In this document: positions 5,237 to 30,144 of the stretch, one piece after another | How the letters are laid out: every line of letters begins with the position of its first letter | Position numbering within the stretch: the stretch's first letter is position 1 | Origin: Candidatus Krumholzibacteriia bacterium | GTDB lineage: Bacteria > Krumholzibacteriota > Krumholzibacteriia > LZORAL124-64-63 | NCBI GenBank assembly: GCA_046484865.1 | Contig: JAWOID010000113.1 | Span: forward strand, 1-34,151 | Length of the DNA stretch: 34,151 nt | Direction: 5' to 3' | Notes under the pieces: generated by a model | Told to the model about the DNA's origin: nothing | Seen by the model: the letters and a program-made list of their open reading frames with translations, nothing else | Databases searched by the model: none | Made by a program: the position numbers and the translations under genes

Positions 5237-6244
5237 ATGTCCCTGCAGCCCCTGCGCATCGCCGTCATCGGCGCCGGACACCTGGGCCGCTGGCACGCCC
5301 AGCAGCTCTCCACGCTCCCGGACGTGGAACTGGTCGCGATCTGCGACCCGGACCCGCGGTGCCGCGAACTGGCCGACCGGTACGGGTGCGCGCTGGTGCA
5401 GGAGGCGGCGGACCTCGACGCCGGCGGGCTGGACGGCGCGACCATCGCCGCTCCCACGACGCTGCACCACGATCTCGCCCGACACTTCCTGGAGCGGGAC
5501 GTGCCCTGCCTGGTCGAGAAGCCGCTGGCCGCCACGGTGTCGGATGCCCGCGCGCTCTGTGAACTGGCCGAGGGCCGCGGCGTGCTGCTGCAGGTCGGGC
5601 ACATCGAGCGGTTCAACCCCGCCCTGCGGGCGGTGGCACAGCAGATCCGGATGCCACGCTTCCTGGAGGCGGTGCGGCTGGCTCCGTATCCCTTCCGGGC
5701 CACCGACGTGGGCGTGATCCTCGACCTGATGATCCATGACCTGGAGATCGTCATCGCCCTGGTGCAGCGGGAGATCCGGGTGGTGCGCGCCTGGGCGGCA
5801 CCGGTGTTCTCGGACACCGAGGACCTCGCCGCGGCGTGGATCGAGTTCGAGGGCGGCGCCTGCGCGCAGCTGAAGGCGGTCCGTGCCGCCCTGCACAGCG
5901 AACGCCGCCTGCGGGTCTACCAGGACGACGGCTGCCTGGAGGTGGATTTTCTGGGCCGCACCGCGACCATGATCCGGCGCCGGGACGACGTCGATCCCGA
6001 GCTGGTGCCGTCCAGCTTGAGTCCGGACGATCTCGGCGGGATGGCCCCGGTCGACTTCGTGCGGGAACGGCTGGTGACCGTCGAACAGCCGGCCGTGGAC
6101 GTCGGCGCCAACCCGCTGCGCGACGAACTGGCGGCCTTTGCGGCGAGCATCCGCCTCGGCACGCCGCCCCTGGTCGGCGGCCGGGACGGTCTGCGGGCCA
6201 TCGAGGCCGCCGAGCGGGTTCGGACGGCGGCGGGCCTGGGCTGA
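5237..6244 (+). CDS. Gfo/Idh/MocA family NAD(P)-dependent oxidoreductase
   Basis: RBS GAGGAG. N-terminal Rossmann motif IAVIGAGHLGRWH. EKP motif (CLVEKPLA) characteristic of the Gfo/Idh/MocA family. C-terminal alpha/beta domain. Confidence 0.85.
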   Translation: MSLQPLRIAVIGAGHLGRWHAQQLSTLPDVELVAICDPDPRCRELADRYGCALVQEAADLDAGGLDGATIAAPTTLHHDLARHFLERDVPCLVEKPLAATVSDARALCELAEGRGVLLQVGHIERFNPALRAVAQQIRMPRFLEAVRLAPYPFRATDVGVILDLMIHDLEIVIALVQREIRVVRAWAAPVFSDTEDLAAAWIEFEGGACAQLKAVRAALHSERRLRVYQDDGCLEVDFLGRTATMIRRRDDVDPELVPSSLSPDDLGGMAPVDFVRERLVTVEQPAVDVGANPLRDELAAFAASIRLGTPPLVGGRDGLRAIEAAERVRTAAGLG

Positions 6245-6398
6245 GGGATGGCCACGGCGGTCGTGCGGAGGTTCCTGCGGCAGCCGCGCGGACGCACCCT
6301 GCCGGCCTCGAGCGCGTAATTCGGATGAATCAACATGTGAATCGAGTGGGGATCGCCACCATAGTCCGTTCTTTTTTGCCCCCGGCCCGAAAACCGCG

Positions 6399-6426
6399 TT
6401 GACATCCAACCGCGATCTCGTACTTT
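6399..6426 (+). promoter_or_regulatory. Sigma70-like promoter (TTGACA-N16-TACTTT) upstream of kamA operon
   Basis: TTGACA at 6399-6404, then a 16-bp spacer and TACTTT(AT) at 6421-6426. It sits in a locally AT-richer stretch, about 150 nt upstream of the GTG start at 6579. Confidence 0.4.
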
Positions 6427-6578
6427 ATCGCGCCACTACCGGGTGTGACCGGTCGGGAGGCCGGCCCCCGTGTCGTACCGACGGACCGTCCGGGCGCCGC
6501 CCCTGCGCGGCATCAGAATCCGGACGACCAGACCGCCGGCGAGGTTTGTGTGGTTGCCAGCCTTCGAGGAGGCGAACC

Positions 6579-7895
6579 GTGCAGAAGCACCTCGTGAGCG
6601 GTAGGGCGTACTCGTTCAAGGTTCCCGTGCGGATCCAGGAGGTCGAGTCGGACACGTCCGACGACCCACCGTCCGCAGGAGCTGCGCCCGCCGAAGACGA
6701 ACACCACCCTCCCTCCGATGACCTCACCCACCTGATCGCCAAGCGACTGCCCGCTTCCGGGCCGCGGACCCGCGCCTTCCGGCGCGCGTTCCATCCGCGC
6801 GTGACGGACCGCGAGTGGAACGACTGGCGCTGGCAGATGCGCCACCGTGTCCGCTCCTTCGACCAGCTCGACCGGATGGTCCGGCTCTCGGACCAGGAGC
6901 GGCATGCGCTCCAGCAGGGCGGATCGATGCTGCCGGTGGCGATCACCCCGTATTACATGAGCCTGCTCGATCCAGACGATCCGCTGCAGCCCCTGCGCCG
7001 CACGGTGATCCCCGTGCAGTCGGAGTTCCTGCGCTCCGTCGGCGAGTCGGACGACCCGCTGGGCGAGGACGACCATAGCCCGGTGCCCGGTCTCGTGCAC
7101 CGCTACCCGGACCGGGTGCTCTTCCTGGTGCACGACCACTGCGCCACCTTCTGCCGCTACTGCACGCGTTCGCGCGTGGTGGGACAGGGCGAGCTGAAGC
7201 CGGACAAGGAGCGCTTGGAGGCGGGGCTCGCGTACATTCGCCGCACGCCCGCCATCCGCGACGTGCTGCTCTCGGGCGGCGATCCCCTGAACGTGGCCGA
7301 CGACCGGCTCGACTGGCTCCTGGGTGAGCTGCGGCGCATCCCGCACGTCCAGTTCCTGCGCATCGGCACCAAGGTGCCGGCGGTGTTGCCTCAGCGAGTG
7401 ACGCCGGCGCTGGCGAGGATGCTGCGCAAGCATCACCCGCTGTTCCTGAGCATCCATTTCACCCACCCGGACGAATGCACCGTGGAGACGGCGCGCGCCT
7501 GCCGGCGCCTGTCCGACGCGGGCATCCCCCTGGGATCGCAGACCGTGCTGCTCAAGGGCGTGAACGACGACGTGGTGACGATGAAGCAGCTCGTCCACCG
7601 GCTGCTGGTCATGCGCGTGCGTCCCTATTACCTGTACCAGTGCGACCCGATCTCCGGATCGAGTCATTTCCGGACGAGCGTCTCCAGAGGGCTCGAGATC
7701 ATCCGGGGCCTGCGCGGGTGGACCACCGGATACGCCGTCCCCACCTACGTCATCGACGCGCCCGGCGGCGGCGGCAAGATCCCGCTGCAGCCGGACTCGG
7801 TGGCCGGTCGGGAAGGCGATGATCTCCTGCTGCGCAATTTCGCCGGCGAGGTGTTCCGGTACCATGACCGCGGCAGCAGCGTGGAGGTGATGTGA
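6579..7895 (+). CDS. kamA: KamA-family radical-SAM amino-acid 2,3-aminomutase (lysine 2,3-aminomutase-like, PLP-dependent)
   Basis: GGAGG RBS 8 nt before GTG 6579. Conserved KamA N-terminal WNDWRWQ motif. Radical-SAM CxxxCxxC (HCATFCRYCTRS). PLP-lysine motif PTYVIDAPGGGGKIP. Full-length C-terminal domain, so not the short EpmB type. The 5' part of track ORF 6138..7895 is rejected as read-through. Confidence 0.85.
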   Translation: MQKHLVSGRAYSFKVPVRIQEVESDTSDDPPSAGAAPAEDEHHPPSDDLTHLIAKRLPASGPRTRAFRRAFHPRVTDREWNDWRWQMRHRVRSFDQLDRMVRLSDQERHALQQGGSMLPVAITPYYMSLLDPDDPLQPLRRTVIPVQSEFLRSVGESDDPLGEDDHSPVPGLVHRYPDRVLFLVHDHCATFCRYCTRSRVVGQGELKPDKERLEAGLAYIRRTPAIRDVLLSGGDPLNVADDRLDWLLGELRRIPHVQFLRIGTKVPAVLPQRVTPALARMLRKHHPLFLSIHFTHPDECTVETARACRRLSDAGIPLGSQTVLLKGVNDDVVTMKQLVHRLLVMRVRPYYLYQCDPISGSSHFRTSVSRGLEIIRGLRGWTTGYAVPTYVIDAPGGGGKIPLQPDSVAGREGDDLLLRNFAGEVFRYHDRGSSVEVM

Positions 7896-8953
7896 TGCGC
7901 ATCGGCCTGACCTACGACCTCCGGGACGAGTACCTGAGCCTGGGCTACGACGAGGAGGAGACGGCGGAGTTCGACCGCATCTCCACCATCGACGAGATCG
8001 ACGACGCCCTGCGGCGGCTCGGACACGTCACCGATCGTATCGGCCACGCCCGGCAGCTGGTGGAGCGCCTGGCGGCGGGCGAGCGCTGGGACCTGGTGTT
8101 CAACATCGCCGAGGGGATGCACGGGATCGGACGCGAGGCGCAGGTGCCGGCGCTCCTGGACGTGTATTCGATCCCCTACACCTTCAGCGATCCGCTGGTC
8201 CTCTCGCTGACGCTCCACAAGGGGATGACCAAGCGCGTCCTGCGCGACGCAGGCCTGCCCACCAGCGCCTTCGTCGAGGTGGCCGGCCTGGCCGACCTGG
8301 AGGGACTGAACCTGCCGTTCCCGCTGTTCGCCAAGCCGGTGGCCGAGGGGACGGGCAAGGGGATCGACGGCGATTCGGTGCTGCGTACGCCCGCCGAGAT
8401 GCACGAGCGCTGCGCCCTGCTGCTGGAGCGGTTCCGGCAGCCGGTGCTGGTGGAGACCTTCCTGCCCGGCCGCGAACTCACCGTGGGCATCACCGGCACC
8501 GGCGACCGCGCGCAGGTTCTGGGCACCCTCGAGGTGGTGCTGCTCGACGGCGCCGAGGCCGAGGCCTACACCTACACCAACAAGGAGAACTGCGAGGACC
8601 TGGTGGAGTACCGCCCCGTGGACGGCCGCCTCGATCCGCAGGTGCGTCGCGCCGAAGAGGCCGCGCTGGCGGCGTGGCGCCTGCTGGGCTGCCGCGATGC
8701 CGGCCGGGTGGACCTGCGCGCCGACGCGCAGGGCGTCCTGCAGATCATGGAGCTGAACCCGCTGGCGGGGCTGCACCCCGAGCATTCGGATCTGCCGATG
8801 ATCGCCACCGCTGCGGGCATGAGCTACGACGACCTGATGCGCCGCATCGTCGATTCCGCCCGCGAGCGCCTGGTGGTGGTGCCGCTGCGGGAGGTGACCG
8901 GCCATGCGTGTGCTGTTGCTGCACAACGCGGTGTCGCCGCACGCGGCGCCTGA
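7895..8953 (+). CDS. ATP-grasp ligase, D-alanine--D-alanine ligase-like (paralog 1)
   Basis: Start overlaps the kamA stop (GTGATGTGATG context; GTG 7892 or ATG 7895). Ddl-family motifs include …PFPLFAKPVAEGTGKGI…, …LVETFLPGRELTVGI… and …GRVDLRADAQGVLQIMELNPLAGL…. Confidence 0.8.
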   Translation: MRIGLTYDLRDEYLSLGYDEEETAEFDRISTIDEIDDALRRLGHVTDRIGHARQLVERLAAGERWDLVFNIAEGMHGIGREAQVPALLDVYSIPYTFSDPLVLSLTLHKGMTKRVLRDAGLPTSAFVEVAGLADLEGLNLPFPLFAKPVAEGTGKGIDGDSVLRTPAEMHERCALLLERFRQPVLVETFLPGRELTVGITGTGDRAQVLGTLEVVLLDGAEAEAYTYTNKENCEDLVEYRPVDGRLDPQVRRAEEAALAAWRLLGCRDAGRVDLRADAQGVLQIMELNPLAGLHPEHSDLPMIATAAGMSYDDLMRRIVDSARERLVVVPLREVTGHACAVAAQRGVAARGA

Positions 8954-9902
8954 CGAGGCGGACGTCCTCGCTCAGGTGGAGGCGGTCGCCGCCGCGCTGA
9001 AAGGACTGGGGCACGAGACCGCGGCGTTCGGCTGCAGCCTCGACCTGCAGGCCGTCGCCGGCGCCCTGGCCGAGTGGCGCCCCGGCGCTGTCTTCAACCT
9101 GGTCGAGAGCCTGGCCGGCCACGGACGTCTGATCCACCTGGCACCGGCCGTCGTGGAGGCGTCCGGCGTCCCGCTGGCGGGCTGCCCGACCGAGGCCATC
9201 TTCCTGACCTCGCACAAGCTCGTGGCGAAGGAATGCCTCCAGCGTGCGGGGCTGCCCACGCCCGCCTGGCTCGGCCCGGACGGCTCGCCCGGCGGGCGGC
9301 CTCCGGCGAACGAACCGCGGCAGTGGATCGTCAAGTCCGTGTGGGAGGACGCATCGCTGGGCATGGACGACGGTTCGGTGATCACCGGTACGGCCGCCGC
9401 CCGCGATCTCCTGCGGCAGCGGTGCGGCACGGCCGGCGCCCCCTGGTTCGCGGAGGCGTTCGTGGAGGGCCGCGAGTTCAACATCGCGCTGCTCGACGGG
9501 ACCGACGGCCCCCGGGTGCTGCCCCCGGCGGAGATGCTATTCGCGGACTACCCGGACGGCAAGCCGCGCATCGTGGGCTACGCCGCCAAGTGGCACGCCG
9601 ATTCCTTCGAGTACGGCCATACCGTGCGCACCTTCGACTTCCCGTCGGAGGACCGGTCGTTGCTGGACGAGCTGACCGATCTCTGCCACGCCTGCTGGCG
9701 GTCGTTCGGGCTGCGCGGCTGGGCACGGGTCGATTTCCGGGTGGACGCCGACGGGCGACCATGGATCCTCGAGGTGAACGCCAACCCCTGCCTGGCTCCG
9801 GACGCCGGCTACGTCGCCGCCGTCGAGCGGGCCGGTTCGACCTTCCCGCGGGCCGTGGCGCAGATCCTCGCCACGGCGGCCGCCGACGGCCGCCGGCCCT
9901 GA
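8904..9902 (+). CDS. ATP-grasp ligase, D-alanine--D-alanine ligase-like (paralog 2)
   Basis: ATG 8904 overlaps the 3' end of paralog 1 by about 50 nt. Motifs include …QWIVKSVWEDASLG…, …FAEAFVEGREFNIALL… and …GWARVDFRVDADGRPWILEVNANPCLAPDAG… (Ddl-type Mg/ATP site region). Confidence 0.8.
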   Translation: MRVLLLHNAVSPHAAPDEADVLAQVEAVAAALKGLGHETAAFGCSLDLQAVAGALAEWRPGAVFNLVESLAGHGRLIHLAPAVVEASGVPLAGCPTEAIFLTSHKLVAKECLQRAGLPTPAWLGPDGSPGGRPPANEPRQWIVKSVWEDASLGMDDGSVITGTAAARDLLRQRCGTAGAPWFAEAFVEGREFNIALLDGTDGPRVLPPAEMLFADYPDGKPRIVGYAAKWHADSFEYGHTVRTFDFPSEDRSLLDELTDLCHACWRSFGLRGWARVDFRVDADGRPWILEVNANPCLAPDAGYVAAVERAGSTFPRAVAQILATAAADGRRP

Positions 9903-9919
9903 CGGGAGGAAGTCGCCGC

Positions 9920-11656
9920 ATGTTCCGCATCCGACGCATCCATGACGACGCCCTGCCGGTGAACCTGGCCGCCCTCGAGCAGGTGCAGGCCATCCTGCGC
10001 GACCGCTTCCCGGACGCGCCCGACAAGGACGCCGACGAACTGCCGTCCCGCCTGCGCGACCCGTACCTGCACCGGTTCCACGGCGTGCTCTACGTGGCGG
10101 AGAAGCAGAGCGGGGGCGGGGTGCAGGGGTTCGCCCTGGTGCTGCACGATGCGCAGCTGCGGATGCTCTATCTCGACTACATCGCCGCCCAGGCGCGGCT
10201 CACGAGCCGCGGCATCGGCGGCGCCCTCTACCAGCGGGTCCGCGACGAGGGCAAGGCGCTGAACGCCCGCGGCGTCTTCTTCGAGTCGCTCCCGGACGAC
10301 CCGGCCGACTGCGGCGACCGGGCGCTGCTCGTCGCGAACAAGGCGCGGCTGCGCTTCTACGAGACCTTCGGCGCCCGGCCGCTGGTGAACAACGATTACA
10401 CCAGACCGGTGCGCCCCGACGACACCTGCATGCCGTATCTGGTCTACGATCCCCTGGACGGCAAGGCGCCGGGCCGCCGCTTCGTCCGCGAGGCGGTCCG
10501 CGCCATCCTGGAGCGCAAGTACGCCCACCTGTGCCCGCCCGAGTACGTGGAGGCGGTGGTCCGCTCCTTCAAGGACGACCCGGTGCAGATGCGCGCTCCG
10601 CGCTACCGCAAGGAACCGCGGCCGGTGGCACCCGCGGTGGTGGGCCAGGAGCGGATCGCGCTCATCGTCAACCAGAAGCACGACATCCACCACGTTCACG
10701 ACCGGGGCTACGTGGAGGCGCCGGTGCGCGTATCCCGCATCCTGGCCGAGCTGGACCGGACCGAGGCCTTCGAGCGCCTGGAGGCGCGGGAACGCGGCGT
10801 CGAGCACATCAAGCAGGTGCACGACCGCGGCTACGTGGAGTACCTGCGACGGGTCTGCGCGGGGCTCGACGCGAAGCAATCGGTCTACCCGTACGTCTTC
10901 CCCGTCCGCAACGCCAGCCGGCCGCCGCAGGATCTGGCCGTGCGCGCCGGCTACTACTGCATCGACACCTTCACTCCGCTCAACCAGAACGCCTACAAGG
11001 CGGCGCGGGGGGCGGTGAACTGCGTCCTGGCCGGTGTGGAGGAGATCAGACGCGGCCGGCGGCTGGCCTATGCCCTGGTGCGGCCGCCCGGCCACCACGC
11101 GGAGCGGAGGTCGTTTGGCGGCTTCTGCTACTTCTGCAACGGCGGGATCGCGGCCAGCGAGCTGGCGCGCCTGGGCAAGGTGGCTCTGCTGGACATCGAC
11201 TACCACCACGGCAATGGCCAGCAGGACATTTTCTATGCCCGCGACGACGTGCTGACGGTCTCGATCCACGGCCATCCGCGGTTCTCGTACCCCTACTTCT
11301 CGGGCTTCGCCGAGGAAGAGGGCGAGGGCGCCGGCCGCGGCTTCAATCTCAACCTGCCGCTGCCGGAGACCATCGATGCGATCCGCTACCGCGAAGCGCT
11401 GGAGCAGGCGCTGCGCCGGGTGCGTTCGTTCAAGCCGGCGGTACTGGTGGTGTCGCTGGGGCTGGACACCGCCAAGGGTGACCCGACCGGCACCTGGTTC
11501 CTGGCGGCCGACGACTTCTTCGAGAACGGGCGCCGCATCGGCGCCATGGGCCTGCCGACCCTGGTGGTGCAGGAGGGCGGCTACCGCACCCGCACCCTGG
11601 GTCGCAACGCGCGCGCCTTCTTCGAGGGGCTGCGCAAGGGAGAGCGCGAATCGTGA
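9920..11656 (+). CDS. Bifunctional fusion: N-terminal GNAT acetyltransferase domain + C-terminal histone-deacetylase/acetylpolyamine-amidohydrolase (HDAC/AcuC/APAH) family domain
   Basis: GGAGG RBS before ATG 9920 (MFRIRRIHDD…). N-terminal ~180 aa carry GNAT motif A (…SRGIGGALYQRV…). C-terminal ~390 aa carry the HDAC signatures RPPGHHA, DIDYHHGNG, SLGLDTAKGDP and QEGGY. The upstream part of track ORF 9074..11656 is rejected. Confidence 0.8.
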   Translation: MFRIRRIHDDALPVNLAALEQVQAILRDRFPDAPDKDADELPSRLRDPYLHRFHGVLYVAEKQSGGGVQGFALVLHDAQLRMLYLDYIAAQARLTSRGIGGALYQRVRDEGKALNARGVFFESLPDDPADCGDRALLVANKARLRFYETFGARPLVNNDYTRPVRPDDTCMPYLVYDPLDGKAPGRRFVREAVRAILERKYAHLCPPEYVEAVVRSFKDDPVQMRAPRYRKEPRPVAPAVVGQERIALIVNQKHDIHHVHDRGYVEAPVRVSRILAELDRTEAFERLEARERGVEHIKQVHDRGYVEYLRRVCAGLDAKQSVYPYVFPVRNASRPPQDLAVRAGYYCIDTFTPLNQNAYKAARGAVNCVLAGVEEIRRGRRLAYALVRPPGHHAERRSFGGFCYFCNGGIAASELARLGKVALLDIDYHHGNGQQDIFYARDDVLTVSIHGHPRFSYPYFSGFAEEEGEGAGRGFNLNLPLPETIDAIRYREALEQALRRVRSFKPAVLVVSLGLDTAKGDPTGTWFLAADDFFENGRRIGAMGLPTLVVQEGGYRTRTLGRNARAFFEGLRKGERES

Positions 11657-14476: not shown

Positions 14477-14944
14477 TCAGCGGAAGAGTCGCCTCACCGC
14501 CGACCAGCTCGTCTCCTCGGCCGTTACCCCACATGGTTCGAACTGCCCGCGGATCGCGCCGTTGGGGAACGCGGAAGTGTGGACCTGGACGTAGATGTTG
14601 CCCAGGAACAGCGCCTCCACCTCGGTGGCGGTGGGCATCCACGTGCCGGTGACGGACTGCCCGCTTTCGAGCGGGAAGACGACCGGACCGTTCTCTCCGA
14701 ATGCTCCGATGTGCAGGTGAGCGCCGGTGACGTCCACGAGTCCCTGGTACTCGAGGTAATACGCCACCTCGGTCTGGGCGGCGTTCAGGAACAGAGCGGC
14801 ATGACCGGTCCCCGTGACCGGGGTCGGCGGTACCACCTCTGTCCCGTCGAGTCCGGCCACGAAGCTCCATTCGAGTGCTGCGGCTCCGCCGGCCAGCAGC
14901 AGACTGAACGCTCCGATCAGCATGATGCGCCTAGCAATGCTCAC
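14477..14944 (-). CDS. CHRD-domain secreted protein
   Basis: GGGAGGG RBS 6 nt before GTG 14944. Signal peptide (…RRIMLIGAFSLLLAGGAAA). CHRD signature GAHLHIGAFGENGPVV. Track ORF 14477..15133 is trimmed at its 5' end. Confidence 0.7.
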   Translation of the reverse strand: MSIARRIMLIGAFSLLLAGGAAALEWSFVAGLDGTEVVPPTPVTGTGHAALFLNAAQTEVAYYLEYQGLVDVTGAHLHIGAFGENGPVVFPLESGQSVTGTWMPTATEVEALFLGNIYVQVHTSAFPNGAIRGQFEPCGVTAEETSWSAVRRLFR

Positions 14945-15223: not shown

Positions 15224-15955
15224 TCAGTGCCTGGCGCTGTCGCTCTCTTGCGCGGTCGGTCCGGAGCGCAGGCGCGGGAACAGGACATTGTTCTCCTTGT
15301 GGATGTGGCGGTGCGTGTCGCGCTCCAGCTCGGCGATGGCCCGGACGAGCGCGCGCCAGCTCTCGCAGGCGTCGTCCGGCGTGGCGTGGTCGCCGGTCAG
15401 TCGCCGCATCGTCGCCAGGAGCTCGCCCGCCTGCTCGTGTTCGGTCTCCATCACCCGGAGCGGACCCTCCAGGTGGTGCGCTCGTCCGGAGGCGCCGTCG
15501 TCCTCGCTGGCGCGGGCGAAGGCGCGGACGGCAGGGAAAAGGATCTGCTCCTCCTTCGCCAGGTGGCTCTCGATCTCGGCCCGGAAGCCGCCGATGACCC
15601 GTTCCAGCTCGACCAGCTCCGGGTGCCGGTCGCCATGGGCGTCGCGCACGCGGGCGGCGAGTTCGGTCAGGCGCGGCAGCTCCGACTTGAGATAGGCGTG
15701 GTGGAGGCCCTCGATATGATCGACCAGTTCCTGGAGGTCCATGCCCGCGACGTCCGACTCGTCGTCGCTCGCCGCGGCCGCGGGCATGCTTTCGAGCATG
15801 AGCGCGACGGTGTCGGCATCGAGCCCGCGCTCGGCGCAGGCGTCGGCCAGGGACCGCTGGCCGCCGCAGCAGTAGTCGAGCTGCAGACGGTCGAAGACCC
15901 CCGCCAGATGAGGTCGGGCGCGCACCAGCTCGCCGAGGGTGGTCCGGGTGTTCAT
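15224..15955 (-). CDS. ytfE: Iron-sulfur cluster repair di-iron protein (YtfE/ScdA/RIC)
   Basis: N-terminal ScdA_N motif (GELVRARPHLAGVFDRLQLDYCCGG). Hemerythrin-like C-terminal domain with His/Glu ligand spacing (…HHAYLKSE…, …HIHKENNVLFP…). Confidence 0.85.
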   Translation of the reverse strand: MNTRTTLGELVRARPHLAGVFDRLQLDYCCGGQRSLADACAERGLDADTVALMLESMPAAAASDDESDVAGMDLQELVDHIEGLHHAYLKSELPRLTELAARVRDAHGDRHPELVELERVIGGFRAEIESHLAKEEQILFPAVRAFARASEDDGASGRAHHLEGPLRVMETEHEQAGELLATMRRLTGDHATPDDACESWRALVRAIAELERDTHRHIHKENNVLFPRLRSGPTAQESDSARH

Positions 15956-16149
15956 GTCGGCAACCTCCTGATCGCAAGGAATCGAGGACGACGCGGTCCT
16001 GATGAGGCCAACGTAAGCGCACCGGCCCCTGAGTCAAGACTAATTTCGTCGTGTTTCCGTCCGGCGCCGGTGCGATTAGGTTGGGCAGCGGCAGCCGTAT
16101 GCCGGACGGCGTGTGACGGCGCCCGGCCGACCCGATCGAGGAGGGGTCC

Positions 16150-16527
16150 ATGACCGACTACCACGAGCCGTGGGACGCGCAGTCCGAGGAGGACCGGAAC
16201 ATCCACCGGGCTCTGATGAGCCTCAAGGAGGAGATCGAGGCGGCGGACTGGTATCACGAGCGCGCCGCCGCCACGCGCGACGAGTCCCTGCGCAAGATCC
16301 TCGTCCACAACCGCGACGAGGAGATCGAGCACTCCTGCATGCTGCTGGAGTGGCTGCGCCGCAGGATGCCGGCCTTCCAGGAGCAGCTCTCGCTCTACCT
16401 CTTCAAGGAAGAGGACATCACCGAGATCGAGGAGATGGCGGAAAGCGGCGACGAGGACGGGCAGGAAGTCGAGGCCGCCCCCGGATCGACCGGGCTCGGC
16501 ATCGGCAAGCCGAAGGGGGATGAATGA
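16150..16527 (+). CDS. Encapsulated ferritin-like cargo protein (EncFtn/Flp-type) with C-terminal encapsulin targeting peptide
   Basis: 125 aa. Di-iron E-x-x-H-type motifs (EEIEAADWYHERAA, EEIEHSCMLLEWL). C-terminal tail …GSTGLGIGKPKGDE resembles the G-x-L-G-I-G-x-L-K encapsulin cargo-loading peptide. Stop overlaps the start of the shell gene (ATGA). Confidence 0.7.
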   Translation: MTDYHEPWDAQSEEDRNIHRALMSLKEEIEAADWYHERAAATRDESLRKILVHNRDEEIEHSCMLLEWLRRRMPAFQEQLSLYLFKEEDITEIEEMAESGDEDGQEVEAAPGSTGLGIGKPKGDE

Positions 16528-17351
16528 TGGATTTCCTGCGCAGAGGGCTGGCGCCGGTGGCGTCCGGAGCCTGGGGTGAGATCGACGAGACCGTCGCACG
16601 CGTGCTGCGCGCGCAGCTCCGCGGCCGGTCGGTGGTCGACGTGGAGGGTCCGTTCGGGCTGGACCGGGCCGCCGTGGGCCTGGGCCGCCTGAATTCGGTC
16701 AGCAACCCCGAGAAGGGTGAGGTTGGTTTCGGCGTGCACCGCGTCCAGCCGCTGGTGGAGACACGCGTGTCGTTCGACCTGGACGTCTGGGAGCTGGACA
16801 ACCACGCCCGCGGCGCGGTGGACCTGAAGCTCGACGCGGCCGAGGAGGCCGCGCGCGCCATCGCCCGCTTCGAGGACGAAGCGGTCTTCAACGGTTTCGA
16901 CGACGGCTCGATCGTCGGTCTGACCGAACTCCGGGAACACGACCCGGTGGCCATCGCCGCCGAGCCCGGATCGTTCCTCGACGGAGTGGCGCGGGCGCTG
17001 CTCACGCTCCGGGACGCCGGCGTGGAAGGGCCGTACGCCCTGGTCCTCGGCCCCGACCTCTACCGGCTGTACGCCACCCATGCCGCAGGCTATCCGCTGA
17101 AGAAGCAGGTCCAGAATCTCGTGGAAGGCGACGTGGTGTACGCGCGCAGTCTCGAAGGGGCCCTGCTGCTGAGCCAGCGCGGCGGCGACTTCGTGCTGAC
17201 GCTGGGCCAGGACCTGGCGGTGGGCTACGAGGGCCATACCAACCGAACGGCCACCCTCTTCATCACGGAGTCGTTCACCTTCCGCGTGGTCGACCCGAAC
17301 GCCGGGGTCGTGCTCCCGGTGAAGAGCAGCCAGGACGCTGTGCCCGGGTAA
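16524..17351 (+). CDS. Family-1 encapsulin nanocompartment shell protein (HK97-fold, linocin M18-like)
   Basis: 275 aa, typical family-1 length. Sequence recognised as encapsulin shell (…VETRVSFDLDVWELDN…, …GPYALVLGPDLYRLY…, …FVLTLGQDLAVGYEGH…). Immediately downstream of the cargo gene, with start/stop overlap. Confidence 0.8.
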   Translation: MMDFLRRGLAPVASGAWGEIDETVARVLRAQLRGRSVVDVEGPFGLDRAAVGLGRLNSVSNPEKGEVGFGVHRVQPLVETRVSFDLDVWELDNHARGAVDLKLDAAEEAARAIARFEDEAVFNGFDDGSIVGLTELREHDPVAIAAEPGSFLDGVARALLTLRDAGVEGPYALVLGPDLYRLYATHAAGYPLKKQVQNLVEGDVVYARSLEGALLLSQRGGDFVLTLGQDLAVGYEGHTNRTATLFITESFTFRVVDPNAGVVLPVKSSQDAVPG

Positions 17352-17410
17352 GAGCCGGCACGCGATGCCCGGGCCAGCGCCGGGTGTCCGGGGCCGAGCC
17401 GGGGGCCCGC

Positions 17411-17484
17411 GTCCCGCGCCGGGTCCCGGGTCCCGCGCCGGGCGGCTGGGGTCCCAGCGCCGGGGGCAGAGTCCCAGCGCCGGG
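17411..17484. repeat. Four direct copies of ~14-bp motif GTCCC(G/A)GCGCCGGG at ~20-bp periodicity
   Basis: Copies at about 17411, 17430, 17451 and 17471. All lie in the convergent intergenic region between the encapsulin stop (17351) and the speE stop (17492). Confidence 0.55.
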
Positions 17485-17491
17485 CTCCGGG

Positions 17492-18388
17492 CTAGACAGC
17501 GTCCAGGTACTCCGCGACCGCGACGCGAGCGAACTCCGGCAGCGCGAAGGCCGCCCGGTGGATGTCGAGGTTGTAGTAGCGCCCCGGCAGCCCGGCGGCC
17601 ACCGCGCGTTCGGGCTTCAGGTCGCCGACCGGGCGCAGCCCCAGCGACGCGAAGCTGAACGACCAGAGACCACCCGGATAGGTGAGGTTGGAGTAGTCGT
17701 AGAGGTTGAGCTGCGGGAACACATCCCGCAGCGTTCCCATCAGGCTGCGCTGGGCTGCGCCCTCGTACCACGGGTTCTCACCCTGGGAGACGACGATCCC
17801 CTGCCGGGTGAGCACCCGCTTCACGTCGCCGTAGAATTCGCGGCCGAAGAGCGGCTGGGCCGGTCCGATCGGGTCGGTGGAATCGACCAGCACCACGTCG
17901 TAACGATCGGCGGTGTCGCGGACGAAGGCCACGCCGTCGCCGATGGTCACCTGGACGCGAGGATCGTCGAGGGCGGCCGACGTCAGGCGCAGGTGCTCCC
18001 GGCAGGCGTCTACCACCATCGCGTCGATCTCGACCAGTCGCACGTGCTCCACCGACGGATGGCGGAGAACTTCGCGCACGGTGCCGCCGTCACCGCCGCC
18101 GATGACCAGGACGCGGCGCGGATCCGGGTGCACGCAGAGCGGCACGTGCGCGATCATCTCGTGATACGCGAACTCGTCGCGCTCGGTGACCATCACCAGG
18201 CCGTCGTTGAGCAGCATGCGACCGTGGCCGGCCGTCTCCACCACGTCGACGCGCTGGAACTCGCTGCGGCCGGAGAAGAGCACGCGGGTGACCCGGAAGC
18301 GGCTGGCGTAGATGTCGCGGAAGCGCTCCTCGATCCAGAGGTCGAGCGGCGCGCCCTCGCCGGCGCCGGCGGGCTGGGTCTCGTTCAT
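17492..18388 (-). CDS. speE: Spermidine synthase (aminopropyltransferase)
   Basis: 298 aa. Motifs VLVIGGGDGGTVREV (AdoMet-derivative binding) and VVLVDSTDPIGPA. The start ATG overlaps the stop of the upstream gene (ATGA). Track ORF 17492..19390 is trimmed to this start. Confidence 0.9.
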   Translation of the reverse strand: MNETQPAGAGEGAPLDLWIEERFRDIYASRFRVTRVLFSGRSEFQRVDVVETAGHGRMLLNDGLVMVTERDEFAYHEMIAHVPLCVHPDPRRVLVIGGGDGGTVREVLRHPSVEHVRLVEIDAMVVDACREHLRLTSAALDDPRVQVTIGDGVAFVRDTADRYDVVLVDSTDPIGPAQPLFGREFYGDVKRVLTRQGIVVSQGENPWYEGAAQRSLMGTLRDVFPQLNLYDYSNLTYPGGLWSFSFASLGLRPVGDLKPERAVAAGLPGRYYNLDIHRAAFALPEFARVAVAEYLDAV

Positions 18389-19362
18389 GACGTGCTCCTC
18401 TCGACCCGCGGCTCGCGCTGCAGGTGGGCGTATTCCACGGCATAGCCGCAGCTCAGGACCCGCCCCGTCCGGTGGGTGACGGTCAGGCCTCCGGTCACGG
18501 CGCCGGCCTCGTCCGGGTCCAGCGCGAGACTCCTCTGGAAGATGAGCAGCTCCGCCCTGGCCGGGCGGAACGCTTCCAGCAGGCGGGCGACGACGGCCCG
18601 CTGGCCGGCCGCGTCCAGCTGCCGGTTGGTCTCGAAGCTCACGTACGATCCGATGCGCTGCGGGGTCACGTGCAGGGTGGCGTAGGTGGAGCCGCCGAGG
18701 GCGTTGTAGGAGTAGCCCTGCGGCGCGAAGATGTGGTCGTCCACCGCCAGGTCGCCGAAGAGGTCGGCCAGGCCCGACCGGCGCCGCAGCTCGGGAGCGT
18801 CGTTGCGGCCCGGGACGAACAGCCCGCCCACATCGTCGGGGATGCCGTGCATGAGCAGCTCCAGCGTCGTGTCGTCGGCGTCCGGTTGCCAGGCCCGGTC
18901 CAGATGGAACAGCGCGATGTGATCCCCGTCCGCATCGCCGAACACCTCGGTGGCGCCCGCGACCAGCGCCCGCAGCCGCACCACGTCGTCGTCGAACGAC
19001 GACCGCTGCAGGTGGGGGAAGTTCTCGTTCTTGCGCTCGTAGATCACCGATGCCAGCGCGGCGCCGGTGCCCACCTGCCGCAGGATGCGCTCGGCCGCCA
19101 CCGCCAGCGTGGTCCGGCCGCAGGTGATCATCAGCAGGCGGTCGTCCCAGACGAAGAGGCTCGACTCCGAGAGCAGGTAGGCGTCGCATTCCGGGCTCGA
19201 GAGCTGCGAGAGGATCTCGGCCTCCGCCGCGGCCACGACGCCCTCCCAGAAGGTCGGTCCCAGCCCGCGCAGAGGCGGCGCCGCGGGGGCGAGCAGCACC
19301 TCCAGCTTCTTCTCCGGACCCTCGAACAGCATCTCCACCTCCTCCGTCGTCGCGGCGGCCAA
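18385..19362 (-). CDS. S-adenosylmethionine decarboxylase proenzyme, class II (eukaryotic-type)
   Basis: 325 aa. N-terminal FEGPEKKLEV… matches the eukaryotic-type AdoMetDC signature. LLSESSLFV contains the Glu-Ser autoprocessing site that generates the pyruvoyl cofactor. Upstream of and overlapping speE. Confidence 0.85.
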   Translation of the reverse strand: MAAATTEEVEMLFEGPEKKLEVLLAPAAPPLRGLGPTFWEGVVAAAEAEILSQLSSPECDAYLLSESSLFVWDDRLLMITCGRTTLAVAAERILRQVGTGAALASVIYERKNENFPHLQRSSFDDDVVRLRALVAGATEVFGDADGDHIALFHLDRAWQPDADDTTLELLMHGIPDDVGGLFVPGRNDAPELRRRSGLADLFGDLAVDDHIFAPQGYSYNALGGSTYATLHVTPQRIGSYVSFETNRQLDAAGQRAVVARLLEAFRPARAELLIFQRSLALDPDEAGAVTGGLTVTHRTGRVLSCGYAVEYAHLQREPRVERSTS

Positions 19363-19512
19363 TGTTAACGCCGGCGGGCGTCCCGGTCAAAAACCCCCCG
19401 GTTGCCGGTCGATGGGGGTATGCCTAGGTTCGGGAGGGAAAGAGCCACGGAAACGGGCGGGAGCGCGGGCGGACGGGGGGCGCTCGTTCGCCCAGGACAG
19501 GAAGGACGAGTC

Positions 19513-19944
19513 ATGGCGAACGCCAAGCAGGGAGACCGGGTCAAGATCCACTACACGGGCCGCCTCAAGGACGGCACGGTCTTCGATACCAGCGAGGGAC
19601 GCGAACCTCTGGAATTCACGGCCGGCAGCGAGGAACTGATCACCGGCGTGAGCCACGCGGTCATCGGCATGGAGGAAGGTCAGGAGCGGACGATCACGGT
19701 GCCCCCGGAAGAGGGGTTCGGAGAGCGGCGCGAGGACCTGGCCCAGGAGGTCCCCCGCGATGCCTTGCCGCAGGACGTGAAGGTCGGCGAGCCGCTGACG
19801 GCGCGCTCCGGCGAGCAGGAGGTCCGCGTCTGGGTCCGGGAGCTCTCGGACGACAGCGCGGTGGTGGATGCGAACCATCCGCTGGCGGGACATACCCTGG
19901 AGTTCGACGTCAAGGTGGTGGGCGTCGAGGAACCCGCCGATTAG
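19513..19944 (+). CDS. FKBP-type peptidyl-prolyl cis-trans isomerase (SlyD-like, cytoplasmic)
   Basis: Start MANAKQGDRVKIHYTGRLKDGTVFDTS… is the canonical FKBP N-terminus. It lies within track ORF 19402..19944. There is no signal peptide. An inserted-flap-like region is followed by …LAGHTLEFDVKVVGV…. Confidence 0.8.
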   Translation: MANAKQGDRVKIHYTGRLKDGTVFDTSEGREPLEFTAGSEELITGVSHAVIGMEEGQERTITVPPEEGFGERREDLAQEVPRDALPQDVKVGEPLTARSGEQEVRVWVRELSDDSAVVDANHPLAGHTLEFDVKVVGVEEPAD

Positions 19945-20127
19945 TTCCGCCGACGATCTCGGTCCCGTCGTCGCCGCGCCGCGTCGCCGCCTCGCCGCTG
20001 CGTCGCTTCGCCGCTTGACCGTCCGCCGCCTCGCCGCCTCGCTGCCCTCGCCGCGTGGCGGAGACGCGACTACCGTTTCTGCGGGTGTCGATCGTCGCGA
20101 TTTCCGACCGGCCGAAAGGAGACCAAG

Positions 20128-22452
20128 GTGCCGGACGAGATACGGATCAAGGTGGCGGAGTCCCGTCAGCCGGATGTCGGCAAGGGCCTCGTCAGGCTGT
20201 CGGTGGACGCCATGGCCACGCTCGGTCTCCAGGACGGCGGACTGGTGGAGCTCGAAGGCAAGCGGCGCACGGCGGCCGTCGTGCTCTCGGGCTTTCCGGA
20301 GGACGAGGGGCTCGACATCGTCCGCATGGACGGCCTGCTGCGCGGCAACGCGGGCATCGGTATCGGTGAGCAGGTGCTGGTGCGCCGGGCCGACGCCAAG
20401 GAGGCGCGCTCGGTCACGCTCTCGCCCGCCAAGCCGGGTGTGCGCCTGGGCGGATCGGGCGACGGTCTGAAGCCGACGCTGCTGCACCGGCCGCTGGTCA
20501 CGGGCGACCTCATCTCCACCAGCGTGTTCAAGCGCATGCCCGACCAGATGCCGCCGGGCGCCACGCCGAACGAATTCCTGCGCGGCATGCTGCAGTCGCG
20601 CGCCTTCGGCCTGATGGAGATCCGGCTGGTCGTGATGAAGACGCAGCCCACGGGTGTGGTGCGGGTGACCGAGAACACCCAGATCGAGCTGCTGCCCGAA
20701 TACGAGGGCGATCCCGAGCATGCGATCCGCGAGGTCACCTACGATGACATCGGCGGCATCCGCCCGGTCATCCAGAAGCTGCAGGAGATGGTGGAACTGC
20801 CGCTGAAGCATCCCGAGCTCTTCGCCAGGCTGGGCATCGATCCACCCAACGGCGTGCTGCTGCACGGCCCCCCGGGCACCGGCAAGACCCTGCTGGCGAA
20901 GGCGGTGGCGCAGGAATCGGATGCGGCCTTCTTCGTCATCAACGGCCCGGAGATCATGGGGAAGCACTACGGCGAGTCCGAGGAACGCCTGCGCGCGGTG
21001 TTCGAGGAGGCGGCTCAGAACGCTCCGGCCATCGTCTTCATCGACGAGCTCGACTCGATCGCGCCCAAGCGGGCGGAGGTCACCGGCGAGGCGGAGCGGC
21101 GCATCGTGGCGCAGCTCCTGACGCTCATGGACGGCATGCGCGACCGGCGCAAGCTGATGGTGATCGGCGCCACGAACCGGGTGGACGCCATCGACCAGGC
21201 GCTGCGTCGCCCCGGTCGGTTCGACCGCGAGATCGAGGTGCGCATCCCGGACCGGGTGGGTCGTCTGGAGATCCTGCAGATCCACACGCGCGGCATGCCG
21301 CTGGAGAAGGATGTCGACATCGCCGACCTGGCGGAGCACACCCACGGGTTCACGGGTTCGGACATCGCCGCACTGGTCAAGGAAGCGGCTCTCGCCACCC
21401 TGCGGCGGCTCATGCCCACGATGAACCTCGAGGAGGAGACCATCCCGCCCGAGGTCCTGGAGCGGCTGATCGTGCAACGGCAGGACTTCGATCAGGCCCG
21501 CAAGGAAGTGCAGCCGTCCGCCCTGCGCGAGGTCATCGTGGAGGTGCCGGCGGTGCGCTGGGACGACGTGGGCGGCCTGCAGGACGTCAAGCGCCTGCTG
21601 CACGAGATGGTGGAGTTGCCGCTGCAGAGCCCGGAGGCCTTCGAACGCCTCGGCATCAGGCCGGCGAAGGGGCTGCTGCTCTACGGGCCGCCCGGAACCG
21701 GCAAGACCCTCATCGCGAAGGCGGTGGCCACCGAGGCGGGAGCGAACTTCCTGTCGGCCAAGGGCAGTTCGCTGCTCTCCAAGTGGTACGGGGAGTCCGA
21801 GAAGCGGGTGGCGGAGTACTTCGCCCGCGCCCGACAGGTGACGCCGGCCATCCTCTTCTTCGACGAACTCGACGCCCTCGCGCCGGCGCGCGGCGGCTCC
21901 CTCGGCGAGCCGCACGCCACCGAGCGGGTCGTGAACCAGCTGCTCGCCGAGATGGACGGCATGGAGGAGTTGCGCGGCGTCGTGGTGCTGGGCGCCACCA
22001 ACCGTCCCGACCGCATCGATCCGGCGCTGCTGCGCCCCGGGCGTTTCGACGAGATGGTCTACGTGTCCATTCCCGACCTCGAAGCTCGCCGGTCCATCCT
22101 GGCGGCCCACACGCGCGAGATGGCGCTCGACGAGGATGTCGATCTGGAGAAGCTCGCCCAGATCACCGACAGGTTCACCGGCGCGGACATCGCCGGCGTC
22201 TGCGCGCGGGCCGGGATCTTCGCCCTGCGCGAGAACGTGGAAGCCGAGGCGGTGACGATGGACCACTTCCAGCGCGCGGTGAAGGAGACCATCCCGTCGG
22301 TCACCCCCGAGATGGAGCGGCAGTACCAGAAGGTGGCGCGGCAGGTGAAGCAGCAGGCCTCGCGGATCGGCTTCCTCACCGAGGAGGAGACCGCCGCCGC
22401 AAAGGCCGCCTCGGCCGCCGCCTCCGCTTCTGCGCAGCGCCCGGAAGAATAG
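20128..22452 (+). CDS. Cdc48/p97/VCP-like AAA+ ATPase (N-terminal double-psi-barrel domain + two AAA domains)
   Basis: 774 aa. AAGGAGA RBS before GTG. Cdc48-type N-domain (…[23 protein letters not shown]…). Two Walker A (GPPGTGKT x2) and two Walker B ([16 protein letters not shown]) motifs. Second-region-of-homology arginines are present. Confidence 0.9.
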
Positions 22453-26588: not shown

Positions 26589-26609
26589 GGCGGCGCGTGA
26601 CGGATGCGT

Positions 26610-26642
26610 GGGGCGTCCACCTCAGTGGTGGTCGCCCCACAT
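26610..26642. terminator. Imperfect GC hairpin (GGGGCGTCCACC-tcagt-GGTGGTCGCCCC) at convergent gene ends
   Basis: Sits between the fkpA-like stop (26588) and the DUF1684 stop (26622) and overlaps the last codons of the latter. Candidate bidirectional terminator. Confidence 0.3.
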
Positions 26643-27608: not shown

Positions 27609-27744
27609 TATTTTGATCCAGACTCCGAAAAATTTCATCTCCAGTGCTCTCCTGAGGTGCGGTACGGGCCTGGACACAGTTTCCCTGGCAGAACCGATGT
27701 TACCGCGGTTGCATGGGCGCGGCGAGCGGAGATCACGCCCCGCC

Positions 27745-29811: not shown

Positions 29812-30144
29812 ACGCGTGACCTCGGGTCGGGGGATGGGCGATGCCGACCATCCGCTTGCAAGCCGCCGACCAGCCGCGGACCTCCGGACGAGCGAACGTG
29901 AAGGCCGTAACCGAATGCCAGGATAGGGATTCCGGAGCTCGATGACCCCAGACGGCCGTGACGACCACCGGCGGGCGCCGGCGCCGGCGGATTCAAATCG
30001 GCCGCCGCCGGACGGGGCTCGACCAGCCCTTCCCGGGCGTCGCCCGCGGTCCTGACCGATCGTGATTACCTTCCCAGGTGCGGGTCGTACCGGCGGCGAG
30101 AGGCCGCGTCCGGCAAACGTTTCGACGGGATCGGAGGGTCCGCG

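Follow-up and report, generated by a model that had tools for sequence, protein, structure and literature searches.

Is the divergent arrangement of ytfE, coding for the iron-sulfur cluster repair protein RIC, with genes for an encapsulated ferritin (EncFtn) and an encapsulin shell a functional and regulatory unit, or do two independent units happen to adjoin each other? The question is raised by a MAG contig of Candidatus Krumholzibacteriia, and it was approached here in the whole stretch of 34,151 nt (the window, about 34 kb) and in related loci. With a probability of about 0.88, EncFtn and shell make up an iron-storage operon of the classical family-1 encapsulin type, with ytfE as its divergent neighbour. 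Co-regulation of both units is a more tentative matter and is treated separately below.

Genes of the locus

The genes and the region between them are as follows.

14477-14944, minus strand: CHRD-domain protein of about 155 aa, a neighbour only (Pfam CHRD, 3e-27)
15224-15955, minus strand: ytfE/RIC, iron-sulfur cluster repair di-iron protein, 243 aa (Pfam and TIGR03652)
15956-16149, no strand: divergent ytfE-encFtn intergenic region, 194 bp, the putative place of the promoters of both units
16150-16527, plus strand: encFtn, encapsulated ferritin cargo, 125 aa (PF22277, 1.4e-35)
16524-17351, plus strand: family-1 encapsulin shell protein, 275 aa (PF04454, 1.5e-84)

In EncFtn, a two-helix ferritin-like domain (residues 4-87) is followed by an acidic, Gly-rich linker and by the C-terminal loading peptide GLGIGKPKGDE, the LGIGK of which is encoded by nt 16495-16509. 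The protein scores 121.3 bits against Pfam PF22277 (cut-off 27) and 138.6 bits against NCBIfam TIGR04535 (cut-off 125); in PDB it matches Haliangium ochraceum 7oe2 (1.9e-30) and Rhodospirillum rubrum (Rru) 5da5 (1.3e-23). Roles of Rru EncFtn Glu32, Glu62, His65 and Tyr39 are described (PMC11202242). By the +4 offset taken from the 5da5 alignment, these ferroxidase residues correspond to E28, E58, H61 and Y35, all invariant in the alignment with seven close relatives (A1). LGIGK is likewise invariant in 7/7 close relatives. Of 120 homologues, 88 have LGIG and 100 a relaxed motif, and L-x-IGSLK variants are found in most of the others. The family-1 consensus of loading peptides is SDGSLGIGSLKRS (PMC8346489). 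The cargo C-terminus, on the conservation of which the initial annotation had staked its reading, is thus conserved. EncFtn is the only ORF in the window with a loading-peptide-like C-terminus. In all relatives with a visible upstream neighbour (8/8), the gene immediately preceding the shell gene codes for an EncFtn.

The shell protein scores 283.6 bits against Pfam PF04454 (Linocin_M18; cut-off 24.3) and 275.2 bits against the NCBIfam equivalog NF041155 (encap_f1; cut-off 100). It passes both encapsulin models, a comparison set beforehand as a possible refutation. At the level of sequence, its residues 2-264 align in full length with residues 1-263 of solved shells, as expected of an HK97-fold protomer. 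The best of these are H. ochraceum 7odw (1e-65) and Thermotoga maritima 3dkt (1.7e-61), whereas matches to Myxococcus xanthus EncA 4pt2 (5.6e-14) and to 6nj8 (1.2e-12) are far weaker. The latter two form larger T=3 and T=4 shells. As 4pt2 and 6nj8 fall behind the T=1 shells by some 50 orders of magnitude in E value, the shell is predicted to be most likely a T=1 60-mer.

Cargo and shell genes overlap in an ATGA, composed of the cargo stop TGA (16525-16527) and the shell ATG (16524-16526). Solved shells align from a second ATG of the shell gene, at 16527. Translation of both genes is coupled, and this holds with the shell start at either 16524 or 16527. No finding contradicts the identity of the operon. 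According to the proposed model, EncFtn would assemble into decamers whose dimer interfaces house a di-iron ferroxidase centre, and its C-terminal LGIGK would anchor it on the inner side of the shell protein. The shell, translated from the overlapping downstream frame, would assemble into a T=1 60-mer of roughly 24 nm, and oxidised iron would be mineralised inside.

YtfE combines an ScdA_N domain bearing a DYCCGG motif (Pfam, 2.7e-18) with a hemerythrin-like four-helix bundle (Pfam Hemerythrin, 4.3e-19). Its score against the NCBIfam equivalog TIGR03652 is 237.9 bits (cut-off 204.7), and it matches the Escherichia coli YtfE structures 5fnn/7bha with 2.5e-35; as with EncFtn and shell, the match to solved structures extends along the entire protein. 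The alignment with 7bha pairs H79, H130, E134, H172, H216 and E220 with E. coli H84, H129, E133, H160, H204 and E208 (E. coli di-iron ligands listed in PMC9268430). A ribosome-binding site, AGGAGG, is located 8 nt upstream of the ytfE ATG. The CHRD gene follows downstream of ytfE on the same strand after a gap of 279 bp and, as read from the sequence, likely starts with GTG at 14944. Its product has an N-terminal hydrophobic leader. No CHRD homologue adjoins ytfE at any of 85 other ytfE loci.

Hemerythrin cargos are known in family-1 systems (PMC8346489) and YtfE carries a hemerythrin-like domain, so one may ask if the shell takes up YtfE, or the CHRD protein, as a second cargo, by analogy with hemerythrin-cargo encapsulins. 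Several features argue against it. No loading-peptide motif was found at either terminus of YtfE: its C-terminus (...GPTAQESDSARH), like that of the CHRD protein (...AVRRLFR), has no LGIG- or GSLK-type motif, and its N-terminal TLGELV belongs to the conserved ScdA_N domain. Moreover, ytfE lies on the strand opposite to the encapsulin genes. A second cargo is thus highly improbable; YtfE is a RIC di-iron protein of the ordinary, cytosolic kind.

As regards the initial annotation, its ORF calls agree with ours in coordinates, strands and lengths, including the EncFtn end GLGIGKPKGDE, and the coordinates confirm its ATGA overlap. The gene identities that it had assigned (YtfE/RIC, EncFtn cargo with C-terminal loading peptide, family-1 encapsulin shell) are upheld by curated Pfam and NCBIfam cut-offs. 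The CHRD-domain gene downstream of ytfE is also confirmed, the signal peptide of its supposedly secreted product being judged by eye only. Shell and RIC protein already bear these names in the NCBI record. On the contrary, the label "island" is not retained, since GC content at the ytfE-encapsulin locus (0.67-0.70) equals that of the remainder of the window and genes for unrelated housekeeping functions flank it. No phage genes (terminase, portal, protease) were found near the encapsulin genes; their neighbours in the annotated window are metabolic.

Recurrence of the ytfE-encFtn pairing

The closest relative of YtfE (63% identity) is encoded on an independent metagenome contig (JGI 3300042731) in the same divergent layout with EncFtn, the comparison concerning gene layout only. 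The EncFtn encoded there has 101 aa and is absent from results of the EncFtn homologue search. None of the 85 other ytfE loci has a divergent EncFtn or shell gene. Conversely, ytfE is not found beside EncFtn and shell at any of the eight loci with visible upstream neighbour; upstream neighbours in these relatives all differ (FtsH, FAD oxidase, PDZ, glyoxalase, cytochrome P460, LonC). Shell search of genome contigs retrieved one distant Bacteroidales locus only. The pairing appears to be lineage-specific.

Both sets of counts, as well as the variety of upstream neighbours, favour the explanation that ytfE and the encapsulin operon are independent in function and regulation and stand side by side in this lineage by shared ancestry. 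The same layout on an independent contig, the YtfE of which is just 63% identical, speaks against it. This explanation also has to account for the sequence between both units, described below.

The divergent spacer and candidate regulatory sites

The spacer, given as about 195 bp in the initial annotation, measures 194 bp. It contains the following elements.

16008-16026, minus strand: left arm of an inverted repeat, GCCGGTGCGCTTACGTTGG (read towards ytfE; from repeat score)
16030-16057, no strand: AT-rich core, 38% GC, between two putative -35 regions (from composition)
16066-16084, plus strand: right arm of the inverted repeat, GCCGGTGCGATTAGGTTGG (read towards encFtn; from repeat score)

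The score of this 19-nt inverted repeat is 13, compared with a mean of 7.4 (sd 1.05, maximum 11) in shuffled sequences, none of which reached 13 (0/300). Its arms have 17 of 19 positions in common, and the arm pattern yields two exact matches where 0.1 is expected. The repeat is clearly non-random. No further copies of the 19-mer with two or fewer mismatches were found in 652 kb of other loci.

Each arm ends in a -10-like hexamer facing one of the genes. In the left arm it is the putative ytfE -10 TACGTT (16015-16010), 16 nt downstream of TTGACT (16037-16032); in the right arm it is the putative encFtn -10 TAGGTT (16077-16082), accompanied by a weak -35, TTTCCG (16054-16059). A TAnKKT hexamer occurs 23-114 nt upstream of the EncFtn start in six of seven relatives, which supports the -10 reading of the encFtn hexamer. 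Strict sigma-70 scan of the spacer detected neither promoter nor terminator, and the promoter positions of ytfE and encFtn are inferred from reading the sequence. On this reading, both units would be transcribed from back-to-back promoters, with predicted starts at about 16000-16005 (ytfE) and 16088-16092 (encFtn). The spacer and -10 segments of both promoters would then be near-identical inverted copies flanking the AT-rich core.

The core was initially described as the only AT-richer stretch of the region. It is indeed the lowest-GC 26-mer stretch (38%) inside 15224-17351, yet one of four such stretches across the window. The spacer sequences GCCGGTGCGNTTANGTTGG and GACTAATTTCGTC were considered as possible elements of a shared operator. 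Two other interpretations of the repeat were discarded. Its arms do not fit an ECF-sigma pattern (GGAAC-N16-18-GTT), as no -35 GGAAY is seen by eye at the right distance. A MITE at 16008-16084 would be one without target-site duplication and without a second copy, as judged by a search confined to the 34-kb window and 652 kb of other loci.

It might be objected that the repeat works in RNA rather than as DNA sites, forming a stem-loop (attenuator or stabiliser) in a long 5' leader. A hairpin is predicted on both strands, with a z-score of -2.35 on the ytfE strand but just -1.08 on the encFtn strand. Rfam search of the spacer returned nothing at gathering score, only chance-level matches with E values of at least 0.6. 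Further, a T-tract is absent and the inferred promoters leave neither transcript with both arms. An RNA element thus appears quite improbable.

Boxes of Fur, PerR, Zur, E. coli NsrR, FNR, IdeR, SoxR and OxyR were not found in the spacer when compared with shuffled sequence. Best matches to Fur (9/19), PerR (7/14) and E. coli NsrR (10/22) are equalled by 50%-82% of shuffles, and those to IscR type 2, HcpR-like, Irr and LexA consensus sequences are at chance level as well. A 12/19 match to the IdeR site, equalled by 2.6% of shuffles, was rejected, as one arm resembles a single half-site in a wrong arrangement. Among the regions preceding ytfE at 82 other loci, FNR/Dnr-type boxes and a AACCTGnACGTnCAGGTT palindrome were seen, both of which are absent from the window. 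The window also encodes no regulator.

The IscR type-1 (Rrf2) consensus, checked against PMC3899308, is weakly matched at 16032-16056 (18/25). The match is the best in the window, with a local shuffle p of about 0.002, which becomes about 0.03-0.1 when corrected for the 14 motifs compared. A regulator of the IscR or NsrR kind, sensing Fe-S and encoded outside the window, might bind here, overlapping both -35 regions, and switch both units jointly according to Fe-S, NO or oxidative status. This would be in line with Rrf2 genes adjoining ytfE in other bacteria (loci L011-L013) and with the classical repression of RIC genes by NsrR (PMC9268430). However, 38 equally good matches occur in 652 kb of other loci (about one per 17 kb), no such site is found upstream of EncFtn in eight relatives, and no Rrf2 gene is present in the window. 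The consensus itself comes from Proteobacteria, far from Krumholzibacteriota. An Rrf2-type operator is therefore unlikely. The shared Fur/PerR/Rrf2-type operator of the initial annotation is thus not borne out in its Fur and PerR parts, as no Fur, PerR or NsrR box exceeds shuffle level in the divergent region, and retains of its Rrf2 part only the weak IscR type-1 likeness.

A shared operator for ytfE and the encapsulin operon is possible. Their co-regulation through a shared site may be suspected, though we would bet against it. The absence of the pairing from 85 ytfE and eight EncFtn-shell loci, the lack of a fitting known consensus and the lack of a regulator gene are points against co-regulation. 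The opposite view, fortuitous adjacency, would see in the repeat either a pair of housekeeping promoters that resemble each other or a small repeat element. It is favoured by the failure of known operator consensus sequences to fit the spacer, but is at odds with the 17/19 positions common to both promoters across their spacer, which normally drifts freely. We give this view even odds. The encapsulin iron-storage operon with a divergent ytfE neighbour is the reading preferred here.

Relation to known systems

The locus adds one member, already annotated publicly, to the family-1 encapsulins of EncFtn type, and it does so in a candidate phylum of which few samples exist. The main text of the 2021 survey makes no mention of Krumholzibacteriota. 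What is noteworthy is the pairing with ytfE, recurring in one relative, together with the symmetric promoter region.

For both shell and cargo, the best solved match is the EncFtn-encapsulin of H. ochraceum (7odw/7oe2/5n5f), which agrees with the window in the order of its two genes and in its ferroxidase residues and likewise has a loading peptide with LGIG. It differs in the peptide (SLGIGS... there, LGIGKPKGDE in the window), in the host phylum (Krumholzibacteriota for the window) and in the shell C-terminus, which in the window is about 10 residues longer (PVKSSQDAVPG). R. rubrum EncFtn 5da5, with its four equivalent residues, and T. maritima encapsulin 3dkt, with its full-length shell match, are taxonomically distant, and neither exhibits a difference bearing on function.

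Actinobacterial family-1 encapsulins with hemerythrin cargo are another case of a di-iron hemerythrin-type protein genetically associated with a family-1 shell (PMC8346489). Those cargos have a C-terminal loading peptide and are encoded within the operon, whereas YtfE of the window has neither property. With E. coli YtfE (RIC), the window protein has both domains, the CC motif and the di-iron ligands in common. E. coli ytfE is repressed by NsrR, a box for which was not found in the window spacer.

An ambitious extension of the co-regulation idea would regard RIC and encapsulated ferritin as a co-regulated module of one Krumholzibacteriia lineage, in which the encapsulin serves as both iron sink and source for Fe-S repair by RIC, and the bipartite repeat with the AT-rich, Rrf2-like core switches both units on together. 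We consider this module doubtful at best. Should co-regulation hold, a cytosolic iron donor for Fe-S repair would be linked to an encapsulated iron store, and the link to RIC would suggest a route for iron leaving encapsulins. In E. coli, a physical interaction of RIC with Dps, a mini-ferritin that stores iron, is described (PMC9268430). RIC has thus a precedent for being linked to a ferritin-like store, the neighbour in the window being an encapsulated ferritin and not Dps. The module, if real, would be to an encapsulated store what the RIC-Dps partnership of E. coli is to Dps.

Encapsulin operon and its divergent neighbour

Three ORFs were found at the positions proposed by the initial annotation:

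15224-15955, minus strand: ytfE (RIC), 243 aa
16150-16527, plus strand: EncFtn cargo, 125 aa, C-terminal end GLGIGKPKGDE
16524-17351, plus strand: family-1 encapsulin shell, 275 aa

The proposed identities are supported, all three products scoring above curated Pfam/NCBIfam thresholds. YtfE contains Pfam ScdA_N and Hemerythrin domains, reaches 237.9 bits with equivalog TIGR03652 (cut-off 204.7) and has E. coli YtfE as best structure (2.5e-35). The cargo matches PF22277 (1.4e-35) and TIGR04535 (138.6 bits, cut-off 125), the shell PF04454 (1.5e-84) and equivalog NF041155 (275 bits, cut-off 100); best structures are Haliangium ochraceum EncFtn (1.9e-30) and H. ochraceum shell 7odw (1e-65), respectively. 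NCBI product names are "iron-sulfur cluster repair di-iron protein" (YtfE), "ferritin-like domain-containing protein" (cargo) and "family 1 encapsulin nanocompartment shell protein".

Judged from alignments, the active sites are intact. YtfE carries the DYCCGG motif, and its His/Glu di-iron ligands align with those listed for E. coli YtfE (PMC9268430). The cargo matches Rhodospirillum rubrum EncFtn (1.3e-23), whose Glu32, Glu62, His65 and Tyr39, with roles described in PMC11202242, correspond to cargo E28, E58, H61 and Y35 (alignment offset +4). These four residues are invariant in an alignment of the window protein and six relatives.

The shell, with 67% identity to its nearest other relative, aligns end to end with H. 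ochraceum and Thermotoga maritima (1.7e-61) shells, both of the T=1 type. In contrast, matches to Myxococcus xanthus EncA (5.6e-14) and 6nj8 (1.2e-12), which are T=3 and T=4 shells, are much weaker. Because of this difference, the window shell probably forms a T=1 particle of roughly 24 nm.

The C-terminus of the cargo was expected to be conserved in homologs, and LGIGK is indeed invariant in 7/7 close relatives. Among the 120 best EncFtn homologs, 88 contain LGIG within the last 22 residues and 100 a relaxed loading-peptide motif; most of the remaining ones have L-x-IGSLK variants. EncFtn tails agree with the family-1 loading-peptide consensus SDGSLGIGSLKRS (PMC8346489). The hemerythrin domain of YtfE raises the question of a second, hemerythrin-type cargo. 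Besides EncFtn, no window ORF, YtfE and the CHRD-domain ORF included, has a loading-peptide-type C-terminus; YtfE is thus not such a cargo, and EncFtn is the only one visible in the window.

The predicted ATGA overlap is present (shell ATG 16524-16526, cargo stop TGA 16525-16527). A second shell ATG at 16527 encodes the residue aligned to residue 1 of solved shells. With either ATG, translation of cargo and shell is expected to be coupled. ytfE lies outside this operon, across a divergent spacer (15956-16149) whose length, announced as about 195 bp, is 194 bp. Downstream of ytfE, and in the same orientation, the CHRD-domain ORF (Pfam 3e-27) is indeed present; it probably starts with the GTG at 14944, 279 bp away from ytfE. 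The term "island" is an overstatement for this neighbourhood of three or four genes, because GC content equals that of the flanks and Pfam assigns the neighbours to metabolic types (SDR, HI0933-like flavoprotein, spermidine synthase, AdoMet decarboxylase).

The convergent gap between the shell and spermidine-synthase stops is entirely occupied by a degenerate GC-rich tandem repeat (17367-17485; ~6 copies of a 19-20-bp unit, roughly GGGTCCCAGCGCCGGG...), predicted to fold no better than shuffled sequence. The spermidine synthase gene overlaps that of AdoMet decarboxylase (17492-19362, minus strand), which matches PF01536, not a bacterial SpeD-type model; PF01536 is the eukaryote-type family, uncommon in bacteria. 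At 19402-22452 (plus strand), a gene for an FKBP-type isomerase precedes that of a CDC48-like double-AAA ATPase with CDC48_N domain. At 6138-11656 (plus strand), a lysine-2,3-aminomutase-like radical-SAM enzyme, two ATP-grasp (D-Ala-D-Ala-ligase-like) proteins and a long GNAT plus histone-deacetylase ORF are co-directional and may constitute a cluster for a beta-lysine-derived compound; an AT-rich patch is located at 6315-6345. Large putative ORFs (298, 814 and 523 aa) at 26604-29901 and 283-1854 (plus strand) have no Pfam match, and an AT-rich patch (27605-27653) lies inside or beside such ORFs.

Symmetry of the ytfE-encFtn spacer

Following the suggestion of a shared Fur/PerR/Rrf2-type operator, the spacer was searched for known elements. 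Matches to Fur, PerR, Zur, E. coli NsrR, IscR type-2, FNR, HcpR-like, SoxR, Irr, OxyR and LexA consensus sequences were no better than in shuffled sequence, and Pfam scans of ~30 window ORFs detected no Fur-, PerR- or Rrf2-family gene. Such an operator is therefore not demonstrated. Scans of the spacer likewise revealed no Rfam family, strict sigma-70 promoter or intrinsic terminator.

The AT-richer stretch (16030-16057), initially regarded as the only one, does contain the lowest-GC 26-mer of the locus (38% GC), but is one of four such in the 34-kb window. Positions 16032-16056 agree with the IscR type-1 (Rrf2) consensus ATASYYGACTRWWWYAGTCRRSTAT (worded as in PMC3899308) at 18/25 positions. 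No position in the window matches better (composition-matched shuffle p ~0.002 before correction for the 14 motifs tried). Other loci, however, contain an equally good site roughly every 17 kb, and none was found upstream of EncFtn in eight relatives. The core is a candidate IscR type-1 site and a weak lead.

The spacer has the following symmetric elements:

16008-16026 (minus strand) and 16066-16084 (plus strand): 19-nt inverted repeat, GCCGGTGCG[C/A]TTA[C/G]GTTGG
Read towards ytfE: putative promoter TTGACT-16 nt-TACGTT
Read towards encFtn: putative promoter TTTCCG-17 nt-TAGGTT

The repeat is non-random. It extends to 25 nt with 84% complementarity, ranks in the top three by strength of all local inverted repeats in the window and scores 13 (shuffle mean 7.4, maximum 11; 0/300 shuffles reach 13). 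Exact hits of the 19-mer number two against 0.1 expected; in other loci, 652 kb in total, it does not occur even with up to 2 mismatches. The corresponding RNA hairpin is unremarkable (z-scores -1.08 and -2.35). Since each arm, read towards its gene, terminates in a TAnnnT hexamer, and TAnKKT occurs 23-114 nt upstream of the EncFtn start in 6/7 relatives, supporting its role as a -10 element, we infer that the repeat comprises, for each of two back-to-back promoters, the spacer and the -10 element. The unusual likeness of these two segments may point to binding by a protein.

In other bacteria, two boxes recur in front of ytfE (L011, L015, L057; L031, L043, L044, L048, L075, L076): palindrome AACCTGnACGTnCAGGTT, just past a sigma-70-like promoter and in L011 beside a divergent Rrf2 gene, and FNR/Dnr-type TTGAT-N4-GTCAA. 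Neither is present in the window.

Conservation of the pairing

Ten loci of shell relatives (47-67% identity) were compared, two of them cut off upstream of EncFtn. EncFtn directly precedes the shell gene in all eight loci where that region is visible; ytfE accompanies none of them. Their upstream neighbours all differ (FtsH, FAD oxidase, unknown gene with rubrerythrin, PDZ, glyoxalase/SelR/DsrC, cytochrome P460, LonC). Dodecin (L094, L095), GerE-type response regulator (L002, L094), DJ-1/PfpI (L006, L094) and AAA proteases FtsH or LonC (L002, L008, L094) repeatedly lie beside relatives' operons; none adjoins that of the window.

Conversely, 85 ytfE loci at 40-56% identity were inspected, of which 80 came from scanning metagenomes and five from context look-ups; over distances of up to 6 kb, none had an EncFtn, shell or CHRD homolog. 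Only the closest YtfE relative, P0122 (63% identity), departs from this pattern: on its 1800-bp JGI contig (3300042731), an EncFtn-like gene diverges from ytfE over 459 bp and is followed by a truncated gene at the shell position. As P0122 alone among these loci shares the layout, the pairing appears to be specific to one narrow lineage rather than general.

The EncFtn calls of the P0122 contig (101 aa, 110-bp gap before the next gene) and of P0247, a homolog on another contig (102 aa, ending inside the acidic linker), are those with most bearing on the window lineage; both are short and without loading peptide. The contigs being short, truncated calls or frameshifts seem more likely here than cargos that genuinely lack the peptide.

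Possible function and relation to known encapsulins

RIC proteins are iron donors for Fe-S repair. That of E. coli binds the mini-ferritin Dps (PMC9268430). EncFtn decamers oxidize Fe(II) at a dimer-interface di-iron site and cannot store iron by themselves; the C-terminal peptide tethers them inside the shell, where mineral accumulates (PMC8346489, PMC11202242). Co-regulation of ytfE with the encapsulin operon is a tentative reading, to which we assign roughly one chance in three.

A full-text literature search for encapsulins together with YtfE retrieved a single review, in which the two are treated separately. The system itself is a family-1 encapsulin of the EncFtn/Flp cargo class, with each testable defining feature present; this class is the second-largest cargo group, distributed over 23 bacterial phyla (PMC8346489). 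Divergent pairing with ytfE is its only undescribed aspect. The symmetric promoter region and recurrence of the pairing in a close relative form a modest lead.
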